IMG/VR virus record: IMGVR_UViG_3300027754_000044
Length of the DNA stretch: 64,000 nucleotides
Strand: one strand, 5' to 3'
Source: a virus
Shown: in pieces, positions 1-8,429 of the stretch
Position numbering within the stretch: position 1 is the first letter of the stretch
Layout: the number at the start of each line of letters is the position of its first letter
The notes under the pieces: model-generated
Seen by the model: only the letters and a program-made list of their open reading frames with translations
Database searches by the model: none
What the model was told of the DNA's origin: nothing
Translations under genes and position numbers: made by a program

Positions 1-136
1 CTTCAATTCTATTGGCCGCTTCTTCTAACAAATCTGCAATTCTATCTGGTGCATTTTCTTGCACAGACTTTCTTGTAGAAATCTGCCTACGAATTTCGGC
101 TCGTTTTCGTAACCGATAAATTAAATCTTCATCCAT
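1..136 (-). CDS. Phage hypothetical protein (runs off the window edge)
   Basis: Manual translation MDEDLIYRLRKRAEIRRQISTRKSVQENAPDRIADLLEEAANRIE..., preceded by a GGAG SD. Confidence 0.7.
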   Translation of the reverse strand, partial: MDEDLIYRLRKRAEIRRQISTRKSVQENAPDRIADLLEEAANRIE

Positions 137-168
137 AAAAACTCCATATCATCCATAAAAACTCCATA
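129..168. repeat. Perfect 20-bp tandem duplication TCATCCATAAAAACTCCATA covering an RBS and start codon
   Basis: Two adjacent identical copies at 129-148 and 149-168. Confidence 0.9.
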
Positions 169-170
169 TT

Positions 171-733: not shown

Positions 734-812
734 CATATGGAAACACACTGCCTCTCTTTGTAGTCGGAGCCCATGGAAAGAATTCGCCCCATCGGCAATG
801 TGTTTTCATATG
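734..812 (-). ncRNA. Long-stem structured RNA, copy 1 (unknown family)
   Basis: CATATGAAAACACATTGCC ... GGCAGTGTGTTTCCATATG terminal inverted repeat; starts within the CCA of tRNA-Lys. Confidence 0.55.
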
Positions 813-887
813 GTGGGAGTGGTAGGAATCGAACCTAACTCTTAGCGGATTAAAAGTCCGTTGTGCAAGCCTTTACACCACACTCCC
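811..887 (-). tRNA. tRNA-Lys(TTT)
   Basis: GGGAGTG/CACTCCC acceptor, CGGA-CTTTTAA-TCCG anticodon arm, ACCA end. Confidence 0.9.
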
Positions 888-919
888 TATGTCTTGCGTG
901 TTTTGGATTTTCGCTTCAT
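887..919 (-). CDS. Putative 10-aa Lys/Arg-rich peptide MKRKSKTRKT
   Basis: SD AGAAAGGA just upstream of ATG; the TAG stop shares its G with position 1 of tRNA-Lys. Confidence 0.45.
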   Translation of the reverse strand: MKRKSKTRKT

Positions 920-950
920 ACAATTTCCTTTCTGTTAAATTAAAATTTTT

Positions 951-1026
951 TGGTAGGGGATACAGGGATCGAACCTGTGTATGACGGAATCAAAATCCGT
1001 TGCCTTACCATCTTGGCTAATCCCCA
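951..1026 (-). tRNA. tRNA-Gln(TTG)
   Basis: ACGGA-TTTTGAT-TCCGT anticodon arm, TTCGATC T loop, ACCA end. Confidence 0.93.
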
Positions 1027-1033
1027 ACAATTC

Positions 1034-1107
1034 TGGGGCGGCTAGAGAGAATCGAACTCTCGTCCTGAGCTTGGAAGGCTCTCATTCTACCATTGAACTA
1101 CAGCCGC
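1034..1107 (-). tRNA. tRNA-Gly(TCC)
   Basis: GCGGCTG acceptor, GAGC-CTTCCAA-GCTC anticodon arm, CCA end. Confidence 0.92.
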
Positions 1108-1118
1108 ATTACTAATTC

Positions 1119-1205
1119 TGGTGAAGCATACTGGAATCGAACCAGTGTAGGAAAGTCACTTTATGTGTCTGGGCTACCAACAGCGCCTCTACTCCCAATG
1201 CTTCA
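1119..1205 (-). ncRNA. tRNA-like RNA: intact acceptor and T arms, no canonical D or anticodon arm
   Basis: GAAGCAT/ATGCTTC-A-CCA; ACTGG-TTCGATT-CCAGT; central part does not form a cloverleaf. Confidence 0.6.
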
Positions 1206-1327
1206 TATTAGATCATACTCAATAATTCCTTAATGCTGGCACACTAAGTTTTCGCACCCTGCCAGGGGCACCGAATTCAGCTACGCCGAGAGCTTTGCCA
1301 AACCCGTCGAATATGATTTAATATGAA
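1202..1327 (-). ncRNA. Long-stem structured RNA, copy 2
   Basis: TTCATATTAAATCATATTCGA ... TTGAGTATGATCTAATATGAA terminal stem. Confidence 0.55.
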
Positions 1328-1440
1328 CCATATTGAAGCACACTCTGCAGGAATCGAACTCTGCCAACTCAGCACCTAGACGCCAAGCTATCAACCATTA
1401 TATCTGCGTGGCCTACGCATTTGAATGTGCTTCAATATGG
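1328..1440 (-). ncRNA. Long-stem structured RNA, copy 3 (contains a T-loop-like hairpin)
   Basis: CCATATTGAAGCACATTC ... GAGTGTGCTTCAATATGG stem; internal GCAGAG-TTCGATT-CCTGC. Confidence 0.6.
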
Positions 1441-1688: not shown

Positions 1689-2396
1689 TTAGAACGCTTT
1701 AGAAACAGACACAACTACAGAATTTTTGTAGAGCTTTTCTGCAGAAATGGTATTTGCCAGTTGTGTGGCAGCTGTCATACCACGATTCGTGTAGTAATGA
1801 GCACCAACATCAAGACCAGCTAGAGCATACGTTGCGCCAACCTTAATGTCTGTGTAATTACTCGCTGAGTGATTAGCAACACTTGTTCGTCCTATATGAG
1901 CATTACCAGTCAATTTTGGCATGATTGGCATATTCAGATCAGCTTGCATATACTTCGTTCCTTTGCTATTCGCAACGGCAAAGTAATCACCAAGCGACTG
2001 ACTATACTTCAAGCTAATAGGACCAGTGGCCACTCCAGCATAAACTTCATGCGTATTGCTGACACTGTTGAAAGCATTACCTGAACGTGAGTAGTAATAG
2101 TTGTAAGAACCAACATCTACTGTTACGCCTTTAGCAACTTCTTTCTTAAATCCAGCATACACATCATTTTCCATACCAATACTGTCTGTGTATAGAAGGC
2201 TGCTGACGCTGCTATTCCAGTTACCAGCATAAAATCCACTCTTATCTGTATAATCAATTCCACCTTGGAGAGCTTGTGAATTTTGCGTTTGACTAATCCC
2301 ACGGAAACGATAGTCAGAAGTTACACCAACATTACCAGTAATTTGAGCTTGTGCAACGCCAGTTACGAACAACAGTGCAAAAATAATTTTTTTCAT
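1689..2396 (-). CDS. TorF family (TIGR02001-like) putative outer-membrane porin
   Basis: Signal peptide MKKIIFALLFVTGVAQA; TGNVGVTSDYRFRGISQT signature; amphipathic beta strands; C-terminal Phe. Confidence 0.85.
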   Translation of the reverse strand: MKKIIFALLFVTGVAQAQITGNVGVTSDYRFRGISQTQNSQALQGGIDYTDKSGFYAGNWNSSVSSLLYTDSIGMENDVYAGFKKEVAKGVTVDVGSYNYYYSRSGNAFNSVSNTHEVYAGVATGPISLKYSQSLGDYFAVANSKGTKYMQADLNMPIMPKLTGNAHIGRTSVANHSASNYTDIKVGATYALAGLDVGAHYYTNRGMTAATQLANTISAEKLYKNSVVVSVSKAF

Positions 2397-2463
2397 ATTT
2401 TTCTCCGATACATTAAGTTTAATTAAAACCATCATGGTACTCTATATATAATAAATTCTCAGT

Positions 2464-3453
2464 TTATTTTGGTAATTTAATAAAGTCCTCCCCCTTCGTT
2501 GAGTCATAACAAGATTTCCACCAATTATTGTAGAAATTACACACTTCATCGTATTTGAAAAGACTATGACTTGCTAATTTTATAGTTTTTCCAAGATCCG
2601 TGTCTTTATCCACTTTATATGTAACGCAGTCGTATTCTGATCTTCCAAATGTTACAACTGGAACCTGATGCAGAAGAGATTCGAATCCGACACCAGAATT
2701 TACAGTCACTGTGCAGCGAGCAGTTTGAATCAATTGATGGATGGATACATCATCATACCAAAAGACATGAAGATACTTTTTGGCAATTTCTTTCAATGAT
2801 TGCATGCTGCCAGGATTGACTGGATGGCCCTTTACCACCAAATTCATTCCCACTTCTTGAGTGGCTATACAAGTTCTTTCTAATGCTTCTTCCACAGTGA
2901 CGTTGGAATGAAATCTGATTGTCTCATCGTGAGGAATCTGGCAAGGAAAAAATGCATAGTAATCTGGCAGATTTATTTTTTCTCGACTCTGATAAACAGG
3001 CTGATCAAATTTACTCTGATTATCGTTCATGCGATTCTGAAGCATGCGGAAGATCTTAACTCCTTCTAGTGTATCGGATCCATCATTCTTGAATGGATAT
3101 TTAGATGATCCAGCTCCCCATCCTTTACTATCGACAGAGAACATCCACGGGAATGCAGTCTGCATGTAGTAATACACTTCGCAATTTTCTATAGGAAAGC
3201 TATGCGCTTCTTTATGCGGAACAAATAAAATGTCCGGCTTCAGTTCATTCACGAGTTCTGGAGTAAATTGCCAGAGCGGTAATTCTAGAACTTTGAATGA
3301 AATATCAGATCTGCTGGAGTATTCAGCTATGACACGTTCTACAAAATTTCTCCAGTGCTTTCTGATTGGAGGAATTGATCCAGTTTCAAACGGAACTGGG
3401 CCCTTCTTAAACATAACATCAAGTCTGGGTGACAGCAATAAAACTTTTTTCAT
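2464..3453 (-). CDS. Capsule polysaccharide biosynthesis (KpsS/KpsC-like) glycosyltransferase
   Basis: PCQIPHD, LVVKGHP and TVNSGVGFESLL..VVTFG motifs. Confidence 0.7.
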   Translation of the reverse strand: MKKVLLLSPRLDVMFKKGPVPFETGSIPPIRKHWRNFVERVIAEYSSRSDISFKVLELPLWQFTPELVNELKPDILFVPHKEAHSFPIENCEVYYYMQTAFPWMFSVDSKGWGAGSSKYPFKNDGSDTLEGVKIFRMLQNRMNDNQSKFDQPVYQSREKINLPDYYAFFPCQIPHDETIRFHSNVTVEEALERTCIATQEVGMNLVVKGHPVNPGSMQSLKEIAKKYLHVFWYDDVSIHQLIQTARCTVTVNSGVGFESLLHQVPVVTFGRSEYDCVTYKVDKDTDLGKTIKLASHSLFKYDEVCNFYNNWWKSCYDSTKGEDFIKLPK

Positions 3454-4217
3454 AACCAATATTCCTCAGAGAGTTTAGGAAATATATCATAATATCGTTT
3501 TTTCATAGCAAGATACTTCGGATTGCTGTATTTCCTATCTCCCTTTCCAGTCCAGATCGTGGTTCCATGAAGAAATTCCCAGTCCATAAAATCTGTTCCG
3601 AATGCAGTACATGAGTATTTAGTCTTGAAATGCTGATAGGAAACGCTCAATGCAGTCTGATCTAAGAACCATCTCAATTTGTTGTCTAAAATTATCTGAG
3701 CAGTAGATTCCAAAAAGTCTTTTGCAGTTTCTTTAACAAAGACTGCGCCTGCAGCGACTCTGGATCCTTCTCTTTCCCAATCATTCACGCCCGGAAGAGG
3801 CTCTCGAAGAAATATTCCAAGATCTGTATCAAGAGGATCTATGTGTGACATTATCAAACAATCAATGTCTGTGATTAACATCGGCGCAGTAATTATCGAA
3901 GAAGCAACAATGAATCTATTACAAGCGTAATATGTTCGTTTTTCTTCCTGAGAGATCGTTGGCAGTTCTGTATCCTCTGAAGATATAGTCATTTCACCAG
4001 ATGGGAACATACGTTTATATCCCATCTTCAACGTCTGCATATATGTCCAGTCATTTACGCTCGCATTGATCACATGAAGATGAACATTCATGTCTGCTTT
4101 AGCGCAAGAAGAAATATATGCTTGAGCATGATCTCTTAGATACTTAGGATCACATGATGTGAACAAACAAAATTTTCTAGGACGCTCACCAATAACATTC
4201 CAATTTATATTCATCAT
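3450..4217 (-). CDS. Putative GT-A fold glycosyltransferase
   Basis: YYACNRF, LITDID (DxD), VAAG, WFLDQ motifs. Confidence 0.55.
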   Translation of the reverse strand: MMNINWNVIGERPRKFCLFTSCDPKYLRDHAQAYISSCAKADMNVHLHVINASVNDWTYMQTLKMGYKRMFPSGEMTISSEDTELPTISQEEKRTYYACNRFIVASSIITAPMLITDIDCLIMSHIDPLDTDLGIFLREPLPGVNDWEREGSRVAAGAVFVKETAKDFLESTAQIILDNKLRWFLDQTALSVSYQHFKTKYSCTAFGTDFMDWEFLHGTTIWTGKGDRKYSNPKYLAMKKRYYDIFPKLSEEYWL

Positions 4218-4933
4218 CTGCCTATAAAATCATATATCACATCATTATTAACGACGTTTGGTTTGTGTCCTTCTTCTAAGATCTTATCGCGATAATCAAA
4301 CCAAAATTGGACTAACTCCGGACGAGGATGATTAGCAGTTTCTCCAGTATACCATTTCGGCATCCATGGCTGAGTGCTCATTCTAGAATAATGAAGTTGC
4401 CACATATCTTCTATTTTGAGATTATCTCCGTCTAGACAGTTCCATCTTGGATCAAGTTCCTTTACAACTTCACTTCCACTGAATGCGTGAATATATCTTG
4501 AATGAGATTCTGGGATGACTTTCATTCTTTCTATCGGAGCGACTTCTCCCTTCATGGCAGCACAGTCAATAACCATAACACAAAATTCATGTCCACCAAA
4601 TCTTGGACCAAGACGAGCGCCAACCCAGTTATCCTCAAGATCTGTATTCCATAGCTCATTGAGATCTCTGAAATTAATCATATCCACATCGGTGTAAATT
4701 GCACGACCCTCAAAATTACAAACTTCTGGTATTGCCCAACGATAGCCACTGAATGGAGTTGGCCAGCATGAAGTATTCCATCCGCCCCATACACTAGACG
4801 TATCATTCGTTTGACGCATCCATGTAATATCTATAGGAACTGAACAGTTTTTCTTTAAAGAATATTCATATACCATTTCTGCATCTGTGTCCTCACCATT
4901 AGCAGATGTCCCGATGAACAGTCTAATTGTCAT
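4214..4933 (-). CDS. Putative glycosyltransferase (GT8-like)
   Basis: TPFSGYRWAIP, AIYTDVDM (DxD), LDPRWNCLD, LHYS..TQPW. Confidence 0.7.
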   Translation of the reverse strand: MTIRLFIGTSANGEDTDAEMVYEYSLKKNCSVPIDITWMRQTNDTSSVWGGWNTSCWPTPFSGYRWAIPEVCNFEGRAIYTDVDMINFRDLNELWNTDLEDNWVGARLGPRFGGHEFCVMVIDCAAMKGEVAPIERMKVIPESHSRYIHAFSGSEVVKELDPRWNCLDGDNLKIEDMWQLHYSRMSTQPWMPKWYTGETANHPRPELVQFWFDYRDKILEEGHKPNVVNNDVIYDFIGR

Positions 4934-5519
4934 AATGAAATCTCCGATAGAACATTCCATTCATTTGCAAGAATGGTTTTTTCATAGATGATGTGTCTTT
5001 AATTTTAGATGTCATATCTGCATCGTAATAGAATCCACTAGCATTAAATGCACCTTCCCAATAATCTAGATTCCTACAGTTTACGTGATGATGTCCTGCG
5101 TAACCAGGAGGAGCAGCAGTAACCATCAAGAATTTGCATCGCTGAAAAGCATGCATGATTGCTGGAACATGTTTGGATTCTACGTGTTCTAGAAATTCTA
5201 CAGACCAGCCGAGATCAAATTCAATATCGTCGTTTTCCCAATTCAGAAACGGACCTGTCGTGAAGTCGTGGATATGAACATTTCGTCTGCGGGAAAGTGT
5301 ATAGTCTCCGTCTAAACCAACAGAATGTATTCCACGATCGCGAGCTAGATCTAACATTCCACCAGGCCCACATCCAATATCTAGCATTGTTGCGATGTCA
5401 AAATTTTCAATTAGAAAATCTAGAGCGCCTTCGTCTACATGGGTTTTATTTAGATGACCTCCAAGATGTTCTGGAAGTCCGTCATCCGATGGTGCAGAAT
5501 CAATTATATTAATTTTCAT
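4923..5519 (-). CDS. Class I SAM-dependent methyltransferase
   Basis: MLDIGCGPG motif I; FDLGWSVEFLEHV. Confidence 0.8.
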   Translation of the reverse strand: MKINIIDSAPSDDGLPEHLGGHLNKTHVDEGALDFLIENFDIATMLDIGCGPGGMLDLARDRGIHSVGLDGDYTLSRRRNVHIHDFTTGPFLNWENDDIEFDLGWSVEFLEHVESKHVPAIMHAFQRCKFLMVTAAPPGYAGHHHVNCRNLDYWEGAFNASGFYYDADMTSKIKDTSSMKKPFLQMNGMFYRRFHYDN

Positions 5520-5530
5520 TATAACTCCAT

Positions 5531-5538
5531 TATAAATA
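5531..5538 (+). promoter_or_regulatory. T4-type late promoter (plus strand)
   Basis: TATAAATA about 27 nt upstream of the ATG at 5565. Confidence 0.55.
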
Positions 5539-5564
5539 TCAAATTATCATACACTATTATATAT

Positions 5565-5927
5565 ATGAGAAAAAAGAAAGAAAAGAAATCCTTTAAGGTC
5601 TATGTGACGTATTGGCCTGATGGAAAATTCTATATTGGATTCTCTTCGAAAAGTGGAATACAATATGAGAAATATTTTGGATCGTCAAAACTGATCTTAG
5701 ACGAACTAAAAAGAAATCCTAAATCACACGGCTTTACAAAAGATACAATCGGTGAATTTGAAAAAAGATCCCACGCTAGAGCAACTGAACATATACTTCA
5801 ATGGAACAACCGACTTAATCCGCTGATGAAAAATGATATGTGGAATGTTCGATTGCGTCTGAGCTATTTGAAGGATCTTTCTATTCCTAACTGGGTCGCG
5901 CCCACACCGAAGACCAATCTCCCGTAA
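5565..5927 (+). CDS. GIY-YIG family nuclease-like protein
   Basis: VYVTYWPDGKFYIG (GIY-YIG variant), YFGSS, later Glu and Asn; the only credible plus-strand CDS. Confidence 0.6.
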   Translation: MRKKKEKKSFKVYVTYWPDGKFYIGFSSKSGIQYEKYFGSSKLILDELKRNPKSHGFTKDTIGEFEKRSHARATEHILQWNNRLNPLMKNDMWNVRLRLSYLKDLSIPNWVAPTPKTNLP

Positions 5928-6882
5928 GAGCTCCCTTGGCATAGTCTGTAGCGCGATTTTCAAAGAAATTCGTATGCGTCGGAGCATTGATCATTTCTTC
6001 TACCCAAGGTAGTGGATTTTTCTTTACCTTGTAAATCCCGCGCATACCCATAGAAATCAATCTACGATCTGCGATATATTTAATGTATTCCTTTACTTCA
6101 TCAGCGGTGAGTCCGATGATACCGCCCGTCGAAAATGAAAGATCAATAAATTTATTTTCTAGTTCTACCATCTTTTCAGCGATCGCATATATCTTGGACT
6201 TGAGTTCATCGTTCCAAATTTCTTTATTTTCTTCGATATATGTTCGGAACAACTTAATCATCGATTCGGCATGCATGGTTTCATCAACGATCGACCAAGT
6301 AATTATTTGACCCATACCTTTCATTTTGCCGTGGCGAGTAAAATTAAGAAGCATAATAAAAGAGCTAAAGAGTTGCATACCCTCAGTGAACGCCGAGAAC
6401 GCAGCAATATTAGTAGCGACGGACTCAATGGTTCCATTCTTTCCTGAGAGTTCGAGGAAGTATTCATGCTTTTCTCGCATTTCTTTATATTCGAGGAAGT
6501 CTGCATATGTAGAGTCAGGCATTCCTAATGTTTCGATTAGATGAGAATATGCAGCTACGTGTAATGCTTCCCTTGCTGCAAATCCAAGTAGCATCATACG
6601 AATTTCTGGCTGTTTGAAATATGGCAAATAGTTTTGAACATATCCACCAGCGACGTCTAGATCCCCTTGTGTGAAAAATCTAAAGATCTGAGTTAAGAAT
6701 TGTTTTTCTTCTTTGGTTAGATTTTTTTTCCAGTCTTTAACATCCTCTGCCATTGGAACTTCTGAATGCAACCAATGAGATTGCTCATGCTTAAGCCATA
6801 CATCATAGGCCCAACTGTATGAGAAGGGTTTGAAGTGATCTCGTGAATCTGTTAATTTAGTCTTTACTTTTCCTGCGCTCAT
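5887..6882 (-). CDS. nrdB: Ribonucleotide reductase class Ia beta subunit
   Basis: FFTQGD, EALH..AY, EGMQLFSSF, DETMH di-iron ligands; NFFENRATDY tail. Confidence 0.96.
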   Translation of the reverse strand: MSAGKVKTKLTDSRDHFKPFSYSWAYDVWLKHEQSHWLHSEVPMAEDVKDWKKNLTKEEKQFLTQIFRFFTQGDLDVAGGYVQNYLPYFKQPEIRMMLLGFAAREALHVAAYSHLIETLGMPDSTYADFLEYKEMREKHEYFLELSGKNGTIESVATNIAAFSAFTEGMQLFSSFIMLLNFTRHGKMKGMGQIITWSIVDETMHAESMIKLFRTYIEENKEIWNDELKSKIYAIAEKMVELENKFIDLSFSTGGIIGLTADEVKEYIKYIADRRLISMGMRGIYKVKKNPLPWVEEMINAPTHTNFFENRATDYAKGALTGDWSSVWARPS

Positions 6883-7111
6883 ACTTTGCTGCTCCCAATA
6901 TTGTTACATCGTTTTCTGTTTCAATCCAAACTCTTGCTCCGCAAGAGAGAGGACTGTCTTTGCTATACACAACTCGTGATGGCCCGTTGATAATAACTTC
7001 ATGACCATAAGTATTTTTTGATCCTTGCTTGACGGTTATTATCGGATCGTTAGCATCGTATTTTTTATTTGATCGTATCACATTCTGATTCACATGAATA
7101 TAGGTTTTCAT
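6857..7111 (-). CDS. Conserved phage hypothetical protein
   Basis: MKTYIHVNQ...PLSCGARVWIET ORF packed between its neighbours. Confidence 0.65.
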   Translation of the reverse strand: MKTYIHVNQNVIRSNKKYDANDPIITVKQGSKNTYGHEVIINGPSRVVYSKDSPLSCGARVWIETENDVTILGAAKYERRKSKD

Positions 7112-7112
7112 A

Positions 7113-8429
7113 TTAGTCAAAAACTTTTGGAGAATATTTATAAAGTAGTTCGTAGACGTCCGGTAAATTTTTCTTCCAATCATGATTTCGTAATTTGTCT
7201 AATTTATCCATATTAGTGACAAACTCACGAATTATGTTAGGATCATAACTATTCATAAAAGTTTGTAAGAAGTTAATTTGTGTTTGATAAATGTTTTTTG
7301 TTAGATCGTTAGAAGCAGAATTTTTCATAGAAGTTAATTCACGAATCATTTGCATTTTAGAACCAGGCGACATATACTTCAAACTAAGCCAATTTGGTCC
7401 CTCCATATATCTAAAAAAAGTTTTACAGTTTAATTCTTCAGCCAAAGGAATTATTCTAGAAGTCACATAAGGCGAAGCTACTCCAATACAACTCGTGATT
7501 GTCATATTGATATTAATATTGTGTTTTTTATCTTTCATGGATAAAATATTTTTGATATTGTCCAATACGACAGCATATTTTCCTGGATTTCTAATTAATT
7601 CGAATCGTTCTTCTGTATCGTCTACACTGGCTGCAATAGAAATACCTTTAAACTTTTCAAATTTCTGTATGATATTATCGTTAATCACTGACATGTTGCT
7701 ATCGTATTGTAGAGTTATATTTTTTGAAACTCCTGCGTCAATAAGTCGATCCAAACATTTACCCATCGCTGGAATTAAAAATGGTTCTCCACCAGTAAAA
7801 TACATAGAACTCAAAGTAGGTACAACTTCATCGAACTTTTTCCACCATTGATCAGTTTCCCACCACGGAAATGATTTTGCATCATACTTTCCATTACTAT
7901 TCAATAGTATTTCGTAAATGCTACTTCCTTTATCAAATTTCGTAGTTCCATACAATTCAACATGATCATCAGCCCACAAATGACTATGTTTTGGTCCACA
8001 CATAATACACTTAAAGTTACAAATATTTCCGAGACGGAGACTTAACATTTTAATTTTCGAAATATGTGTCAACGAACCATCGTTCTTTGTATATAGATGA
8101 GCTTCATTCGCTTTTACATAATACATTCTTGATAGATTCACAAGACGCTTTGTCGTAAGACTTTTTGCAGCCTCTTCCTGATAACAAGTCTTACATCTTT
8201 CAGGTTTTATATTATCTTTCAATAGAAGTCTGTGAGCGTTATGTGTAGGACTATTGATCGCTTCGTAAATAGAATGCGTCATGATATTCATCTTAACGCC
8301 ATCTTGAGTCATCGCTACACCAAAATTTGCATCAGAATTGGCTAGACAACATATTTTGAAATCGCCCTGCTCGTCGATTTCAATCGCGTTATATAATTCC
8401 GGACAAAAACTTTCTACATTAAATGCCAT
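7113..8429 (-). CDS. Radical SAM protein with an N-terminal twitch/SPASM-like Cys cluster
   Basis: CNFKCIMC (CxxxCxxC), FTGGEP; N-terminal C, CC and CxxC. Confidence 0.85.
   Translation of the reverse strand: MAFNVESFCPELYNAIEIDEQGDFKICCLANSDANFGVAMTQDGVKMNIMTHSIYEAINSPTHNAHRLLLKDNIKPERCKTCYQEEAAKSLTTKRLVNLSRMYYVKANEAHLYTKNDGSLTHISKIKMLSLRLGNICNFKCIMCGPKHSHLWADDHVELYGTTKFDKGSSIYEILLNSNGKYDAKSFPWWETDQWWKKFDEVVPTLSSMYFTGGEPFLIPAMGKCLDRLIDAGVSKNITLQYDSNMSVINDNIIQKFEKFKGISIAASVDDTEERFELIRNPGKYAVVLDNIKNILSMKDKKHNININMTITSCIGVASPYVTSRIIPLAEELNCKTFFRYMEGPNWLSLKYMSPGSKMQMIRELTSMKNSASNDLTKNIYQTQINFLQTFMNSYDPNIIREFVTNMDKLDKLRNHDWKKNLPDVYELLYKYSPKVFD

Follow-up and report, generated by a model that had tools for sequence, protein, structure and literature searches.

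Elements A (1328–1440), B (1202–1327) and C (734–812) are three RNAs encoded on the minus strand near the left end of the virus record IMGVR_UViG_3300027754_000044, here called the window and comprising the whole 64,000 nt stretch that was analysed. The three are members of a real, strand-specific RNA family. Each is closed by a terminal helix of 17–21 bp that has one common sequence, and the interiors enclosed by this helix are unrelated. Judging from the stem, the elements are probably cassettes for processing by the host RNase III, which would free the flanking tRNAs and release stem-closed small RNAs. A first-pass annotation, made from the letters alone, had described the terminal helices, a consensus common to them and unrelated interiors, and had suggested a common double-stranded RNA (dsRNA)-processing or protein-binding helix that carries variable cargo and yields processed small RNAs. 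The helices are borne out by the folds (z −3.9 to −5.4), the consensus by an arm motif that occurs at only these three places in 64 kb, and the interiors of A, B and C are indeed unrelated; the broader suggestion gains from at least 131 relatives, covariation, swappable cargo and a fit to RNase III.

The ends of A, B and C are paired in the predicted folds, with minimum free energy z-scores of −4.7 (A), −5.4 (B) and −3.9 (C) and none of 200 shuffles as good. The common arm motif is well above expectation (5 and 6 matches against 0.58 and 0.35 expected in the 64 kb; no shuffle equalled this). Stem positions are numbered here from C75 of the upstream tRNA, which is position 1. All three elements share C1-A2-U3-A4-U5, A8-A9, C11-A12 and A14-U15-U16 together with the complementary 3′ arm, and the U15·G wobble is kept throughout. 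The compensatory changes claimed earlier are found at positions 6, 7, 10, 13 and 17: in the order C, B, A the pairs are G-C, U-A and U-A at position 6, A·C, A-U and G-C at position 7, A-U, U-A and G-C at position 10, C-G, U-A and C-G at position 13, and G-C, C-G and C-G at position 17.

The stem of element A has 18 bp (5′ arm 1440–1423, 3′ arm 1345–1328) and starts on the CCA of tRNA-Glu(UUC). That of element C spans 19 positions (5′ arm 812–794, 3′ arm 752–734), with an A·C at position 7, and starts on the CA of tRNA-Lys(UUU). These are the two elements that had been seen to start inside the CCA of an upstream tRNA. Element B, with a stem of about 20 bp (5′ arm 1326–1307, 3′ arm 1222–1203) and one A·C mismatch at position 8, lies 2 nt after A and has no upstream CCA; its two pairs below C1 are U-A and U-A. 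A covariance model built from relatives scores 62.6 bits for A, 54.8 bits for C and 39.2 bits for B on the minus strand, and 21–26 bits lower on the plus strand. No fourth cassette was found with this model in 1–2500, and no tRNA is called on A, B or C by Rfam or ARAGORN, relaxed thresholds included.

A loose two-arm pattern run over IMG/VR returned at least 120 loci, from which a filter on arm complementarity kept at least 131 distinct elements; the family counts given here and below rest on the matches listed. All members lie on the tRNA strand of arrays with 5–30 tRNAs and are 67–127 nt long. Of these, 78 start exactly 2 nt inside the CCA of a tRNA called by ARAGORN, and most others follow another RNA that ends in NCCA. 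The register with the CCA is strict, being kept in 78 of the 80 cases adjacent to a called tRNA. In an alignment of 70 sequences, 95.6% of the cells are paired and eight pairs have changes on both sides (116 cells), which none of 500 shuffles equalled; sliding the registers by 1–3 columns brings the paired cells down to 28–53%. Downward, the helix continues through C74-G (65/70) and N73-U (57/70) and then ends directly against the tRNA acceptor stem. Upward, it ends at the freely covarying position 17, with position 18 paired in only about half of the members. Three near-complete relatives carry 2–4 copies per genome, all within the tRNA array except for one weak match (E 0.003) far outside.

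The pattern search of phage tRNA arrays thus uncovered a large family, and the Rfam scan that the first-pass annotation had proposed gave no match: elements A, B and C have no family at the gathering threshold or at E≤10. Twelve related loci gave tRNAs and one GOLLD RNA only, among 150 of 265 matches listed. A blastn search against 50,697 cultured-phage records gave chance-level matches only, a method insensitive to 17-nt arms and one that leaves absence from those records unproven. The stem motif strings were found in no paper of the searchable literature. Over 185,579 prokaryote genomes (species), the pattern occurs in three small contigs of metagenome-assembled genomes (MAGs) only, and these look like misbinned phage DNA. 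One of them, L123, has nine cassettes within 3.2 kb (2758–5897, plus strand) of a 7.5-kb contig binned in a Crocinitomicaceae MAG; this contig is probably of phage origin and hints at the host weakly at best. The GOLLD RNA (189 bits; L074:311–775, minus strand) shares its tRNA array with three cassettes of the family. The family is large and apparently undescribed, and its undescribed features appear to be the stem built on the CCA end of a tRNA and the large set of exchangeable cargo.

The case for RNase III comes from the stem's upper end. For the Escherichia coli enzyme, the minimal helix above the cut is 11 bp, the distal box consists of a U-A and a U·G pair, and the proximal box has G-C as its pair 1, AU or UA but never GC as its pair 2 and A-U as its pair 3, followed by AU or UA beside the scissile bond (PMC1540722, Pertzev & Nicholson 2006). 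Counting from the cut, the natural T7 R1.1 site has a non-canonical C·U as pair 1, U·G as pair 9 and U-A as pair 10, with the loop closed by pair 11. The top 11 bp of the stem, positions 7–17, reproduce this pattern, pairs 10 and 9 being U-A and U·G, pairs 2 and 3 A-U, and pair 11 the last of the helix; on either strand, element A has 8 of 11 bases in common with T7 R1.1. In A, B and C alike, positions 7–17 form a helix of the required length above the proposed cut, and U16-A and U15·G are present.

Across the family the same pairs recur. Pair 10 (position 16) is U16-A in 98% of members and pair 9 (position 15) is U15·G in 86%. Pair 3 (position 9) is A9-U in all 131 members kept from the matches listed (100%) and pair 2 (position 8) is A8-U in 109 of 131 (83%). 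Pair 11 (position 17) is the covarying position at which the helix stops. Positions 8, 9, 16 and 17 were free in the search pattern. Pair 1 (position 7) is A·C in 35%, G-C in 34% and A-U in 16%; pair 1 is likewise non-Watson-Crick in T7 R1.1. Taken on its sequence, the stem agrees with four of the six RNase III sequence rules. A transcriptome-wide study confirms a 2-nt stagger, a substrate of about 22 bp and an A-U preference at the position contacted by Q157, and reports a WSSW preference for RNase III (PMC6212723). A first register, with a cut right after A76 and a 2-nt stagger on the last G of the stem, was dropped because CCAU does not fit WSSW (PMC6212723), and a register with the cut between positions 6 and 7 was chosen because only there do the U-A and U·G pairs and the end of the helix fit the published rules.

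In the proposed mechanism, the substrate would be a quasi-continuous helix made of the tRNA acceptor stem, an 8-bp lower stem and an 11-bp upper stem, and would be bound by the host RNase III. The lower eight pairs would be built on the discriminator N73, the CCA and the first four trailer bases of the upstream tRNA (U-U in B). The enzyme would cut the 5′ strand between positions 6 and 7 and the 3′ strand two bases beyond the partner of position 7, giving a 2-nt stagger. From the register of U16-A and U15·G, the predicted cuts on the minus strand lie between 1434 and 1433 (5′ strand) and between 1333 and 1332 (3′ strand, leaving a 2-nt 3′ overhang) for element A, and between 807 and 806 and between 738 and 737 for element C. 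For element B the predicted cuts lie between 1320 and 1319 (5′ strand), a weaker prediction because pair 2 is the A·C mismatch, and between 1208 and 1207 (3′ strand). The upstream tRNA would be left with a 4-nt trailer that 3′ exonucleases could trim back to the CCA; the cargo would be freed with an 11-bp stem and a 2-nt 3′ overhang and should resist exonucleases; and the short leader left on the next RNA would be removed by RNase P. Cleavage, the identity of the enzyme, the later trimming and the products' stability are all deduced here from sequence. Genes for a phage RNase III, Ro60/TROVE or a CCA-adding enzyme were found in none of five related records searched for each (of which between three and five, according to the search, are near-complete), and the phages therefore seem to rely on host enzymes.

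Several observations weigh against assigning the stem to RNase III. Position 10, where the rule for proximal-box pair 1 asks for G-C, is A-U in 68%, G·U in 21% and G-C in 8% of the family, and of the three elements only A has G-C there. The pair beside the cut is G-C in 34% of members, element A included, which lowers catalysis in E. coli, and element B has its mismatch at pair 2. The stem also varies less in sequence than RNase III sites usually do, which may point to a dedicated partner; at positions 1–5, 11, 12, 14 and 15 the conservation was imposed by the search pattern, and looser searches show variants. The rules are those of E. coli RNase III, and the needs of the distal box may differ between orthologues (PMC1540722). 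Comparing one homologous family with a rule set is in effect a single observation, which would arise by chance, at a rough estimate, with a probability of a few per cent. Finally, cleavage by RNase III leaves unexplained a preference of the cassettes for certain upstream tRNAs. Among the matches listed for loci L001–L120, cassettes follow tRNA-Lys(UUU) in 30 of 52 cases (58%), tRNA-Glu(UUC) in 16 of 62 (26%) and tRNA-Gln(UUG) in 8 of 54 (15%), and other tRNAs in at most 11%; the downstream neighbours are most often tRNA-His and tRNA-Met. The linkage to Lys, Glu and Gln could have a function; alternatively, it may go back to inherited array positions at which cargo has been swapped by recombination at the arms. 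These three tRNAs carry anticodons with a modified U34 and are targets of several anticodon nucleases.

The cargo enclosed by the stem falls into many classes that move independently of the tRNA neighbours in IMG/VR contigs: one cargo is found behind different tRNAs, and one pair of tRNAs around different cargoes. In element A the cargo has a D-arm-like hairpin (1419–1405), a short hairpin, a variable-arm-like hairpin and a T-arm-like hairpin (1364–1347) with one bulged A and the UUCGAUU loop that the first-pass annotation had picked out. Cargo A occurs in about 14 contigs with 11 compensatory pairs, and its consensus is a four-way junction composed of a D-arm-like hairpin with GG in its loop, a 4-bp hairpin, a variable-arm-like hairpin that is long and covaries, and a canonical T-arm. 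On this predicted fold, cargo A is a tRNA-shaped RNA that lacks an anticodon loop and a CCA and in which a 4-bp stub replaces the anticodon arm. The earlier remark that the elements may be tRNA mimics fits cargo A, with its covariation-supported, tRNA-like four-way junction, and no other cargo; no tRNA-like module was found in elements B and C. That cargo A mimics the tRNA elbow is a guess.

Cargo A stands behind at least three different closing stems, from which it follows that stem and cargo are separable modules. In L126 (6983–7127, minus strand), L127, L128, L130, L132 and L138 it sits in another stem, made of about 10 bp, a 2×2 internal loop and about 7 bp; only the top five pairs are common with the stem studied here, this alternative stem is not anchored on a CCA, and the copies are in tandem. 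A promoter-like match within cargo A (1397–1425, minus strand; TTCAAA-17-TATAAT, 10/12) is probably due to chance, because relatives of cargo A lack the −10 hexamer. The cargo of element B consists of three hairpins and has only two near-identical relatives (in L050 and L145), each followed by the tRNA-like RNA here called X. Cargo C, found in about 10 contigs, has a covarying hairpin and then a conserved purine-rich, single-stranded tail.

A doubtful but far-reaching extension is that the stem serves as a universal 'socket', by which freshwater phages exchange a library of small RNAs and express it from tRNA operons, much like an integron at the RNA level, with many cargoes, such as the tRNA-shaped cargo A, acting as decoys or inhibitors against host enzymes that recognize tRNAs, tRNA-cleaving defence nucleases included. 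If true, this would also explain the linkage to tRNA-Lys, tRNA-Glu and tRNA-Gln.

Processing by RNase III has to be weighed against other roles for the stem. Parts of the evidence would suit a handle for a dedicated RNA-binding protein of the phage or the host, with the cassette as the RNA part of a ribonucleoprotein, as a Y RNA is with Ro60, and the likeness to RNase III sites secondary: between diverged phages the cargo and the tRNAs vary but the stem sequence hardly does, the conserved U·G wobble and the recurrent A·C are typical features of protein recognition, and cargo A has a Y-RNA-like layout of closing stem and tRNA-like module. Such a handle is nevertheless unlikely, as no candidate partner came to light. 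The Y-RNA/Ro interpretation of the first-pass annotation was not supported, since neither YrlA (RF02553) nor any other Rfam family matches at E≤10 in 1–1700, and no Ro60/TROVE gene was found in five related phage records (two complete) or among the ten genes near the array, the only ones scanned in the window. Phage RNase III is likewise absent from the five records searched for it, and nothing RNA-related lies beside the array in the window. Moreover, a mere handle would need neither the CCA register nor the 11-bp upper helix, and cargo A also occurs with other stems. The CCA register is equally what would be expected if the cassettes were spacers for tRNA maturation or insulation, in which the stem's part is to protect or define the CCA end and to let neighbouring tRNAs fold independently, the interior being filler; additionally, the next tRNA follows the stem after 0–1 nt in 22 cases among the matches listed, and interiors vary widely in length and sequence. 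However, filler would not be conserved between contigs with compensatory changes, nor would its identity be kept behind other tRNAs or other stems; element B has no upstream tRNA, and most tRNAs of the same arrays manage without such spacers, all of which makes this role decidedly unlikely.

The remaining alternatives concern the arms as DNA and the stem as a switch. Inverted repeats acting as recombination or mobility sites could have shuffled cassettes between phage tRNA arrays, given that cargo and tRNA neighbours are reshuffled around constant arms and that up to nine copies occur per array (L123). Repeated intergenic motifs drive the shuffling of modules in T4-type genomes. A role at the DNA level is very unlikely, however, in view of the G·U pairs that make the tRNA strand 21–26 bits better than its complement, the fixed register with the tRNA 3′ end and the confinement of confident copies to arrays (one weak match, E 0.003, lies outside), with no target-site duplications seen. 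Recombination at the conserved arms may occur as a by-product. A miniature inverted-repeat transposable element (MITE)-like mobile element was also considered and does not fit the unrelated interiors, the array-only confident copies (bar the one at E 0.003) and the strand bias of 21–26 bits. Lastly, the stem pairs N73-C74-C75-A76 in 81–93% of members and is enriched behind Lys-UUU, Glu-UUC and Gln-UUG (30/52, 16/62 and 8/54 against ≤11% for others, among the matches listed), as a regulatory mask would that sequesters the CCA of these tRNAs from charging or from end-targeting enzymes until a switch or cleavage occurs. A mask is hardly to be expected, for the window has no sign of a switch, the enrichment may reflect common descent of array positions, and masking is in any case compatible with processing by RNase III.

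Set beside known systems, the family is best understood, with reasonable though not strong confidence and on its stem sequence and genomic setting, as an RNase III signal combined with the small RNAs of phage tRNA clusters. To T7 R1.1 and its minimal form uR1.1 (PMC1540722) it is likened by the 11-bp upper helix, U-A/U·G at pairs 10/9, A-U at pairs 2/3 and, in many members, a non-canonical pair beside the cut, and T7 early RNA likewise has several copies of one conserved hairpin within a phage transcript. Unlike the T7 stem, which is capped by a tetraloop, the stem described here encloses a structured RNA of 35–95 nt, has its lower part on a tRNA CCA, rarely has G-C at pair 4 and belongs to a tRNA operon rather than an mRNA; cleavage here is predicted.

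The stable RNAs of T4 (rnaC and rnaD, species 1 and 2) and T5 (RNAIII, RNAIV, RNA1 and RNA2) share the setting and the strand and abut tRNAs. RNase III was reportedly involved in processing of the T4 tRNA cluster, cutting species 1 RNA in vitro, according to work of the 1970s–80s. T5 RNAIII and RNAIV are closed by terminal stems, and T4 rnaC and T5 RNA1 and RNA2 carry T-arms, as cargo A does. However, their closing stems are of 9–12 bp and of unrelated sequence, and they are not known to share a handle that carries exchangeable cargo; as homologues they were rejected, a cmsearch of the T4 and T5 tRNA regions with the family covariance model giving no match. T4 RNAC and RNAD still await an assigned role (PMC3014915).

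The stalks of 16S and 23S rRNA and of the Bacillus subtilis scRNA, which is reportedly released from a stem by RNase III (PMC1935012), are similar in that a long-range stem brackets a stable RNA that is released by cutting both strands. Those stalks are single and gene-specific, whereas one stalk sequence here serves many swappable small RNAs and doubles as a tRNA 3′ trailer. The YrlA Y RNAs with Ro60/Rsr (PMC4201824) occur near tRNAs in phages and resemble element A only, by a closing stem and a tRNA-like module with mimics of the D- and T-arms; they differ in stem sequence, RF02553 gives no match, related records have no TROVE, and B and C lack a tRNA-like module.

The window is part of an uncultivated T4-like phage without a close cultured relative. 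It encodes the subunits of a class I ribonucleotide reductase and a gp61-type primase about 40% identical to those of cyanomyoviruses, and Megablast of the whole window against the 50,697 cultured-phage records gave tRNA-sized matches only. The RNA genes at its left end are all on the minus strand, with A, B and C on the same strand as the tRNAs. Elements A, B and C are proposed to be parts of one tRNA operon, which would be transcribed right to left from about 1600; a sigma-70-like promoter upstream of the array (1575–1603, TTGCCA-17-TATAAT, 11/12) is a consensus match only.

The array begins with tRNA-Glu(UUC) (1441–1513; Rfam tRNA, 45.4 bits), whose CCA is the base of the stem of element A. 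It is called by ARAGORN at a relaxed threshold only, and since the default setting overlooks it, tRNA counts from ARAGORN alone will be too low in such arrays. Elements A and B follow, and then RNA X (1118–1206), which has a weak match to the tRNA-like domain of tmRNA (15 bits) and is conserved in L050 and L145. RNA X combines an acceptor-like stem of 7 bp with a perfect, canonical T-arm and ends in ACCA, without a canonical D or anticodon arm, and its first bases overlap the end of the stem of element B. It directly follows the B-type cassettes in L050 and L145 too, with a 6-nt indel in the central hairpin. A tRNA-Gly, a tRNA-Gln and a 63-nt spacer lie between RNA X and tRNA-Lys(UUU) (811–887), the CA-3′ of which supplies positions 1–2 of the stem of element C. 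Nine nt downstream of element C starts tRNA-Ser(UGA) (635–724). A 174-nt stretch (461–634) then separates this gene from tRNA-Asp and tRNA-Ser(GCU) and has no gene call, no Rfam match and no significant fold (z −1.1). A permuted tmRNA called by ARAGORN at a relaxed threshold at 281–607 is taken as spurious because it overlaps two good tRNAs. The last of these RNAs is Y (about 171–266), an odd, class II-like tRNA whose variable arm is long and whose anticodon loop has 9 nt; at a relaxed threshold only, ARAGORN calls it 'Tyr(ata)' with a 2-nt intron, and there is no Rfam call.

The next minus-strand reading frame, just downstream of the array, has at its start a 21-bp tandem duplication (127–170, plus strand). 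On the other side of the array lies a block of host-like genes (1689–8429, minus strand), which encodes a Gcw_chp outer-membrane-type protein with a signal peptide, a capsule-synthesis protein, a family 8 glycosyltransferase, a methyltransferase and a radical SAM/SPASM protein; ThyX and ribonucleotide reductase flank the block.

For fifty years, stable small RNAs whose function is unknown have been on record from phage tRNA clusters, species 1 and 2 of T4 and the RNAs of T5 among them. In uncultivated freshwater T4-like phages such small RNAs are numerous, modular and framed by one conserved stem, the features of which point to a specific processing enzyme. If RNase III cuts as predicted, the ends of well over 100 unannotated phage RNAs become predictable. 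Additionally, there would be a route of tRNA 3′-end formation by way of a dsRNA nuclease acting in register with the CCA, and the stem would be a ready-made natural design for the release of small RNAs from tRNA operons. Together, the cargoes make up a pool of structured RNAs that are conserved but have no assigned function, and some of them are clear mimics of tRNA.

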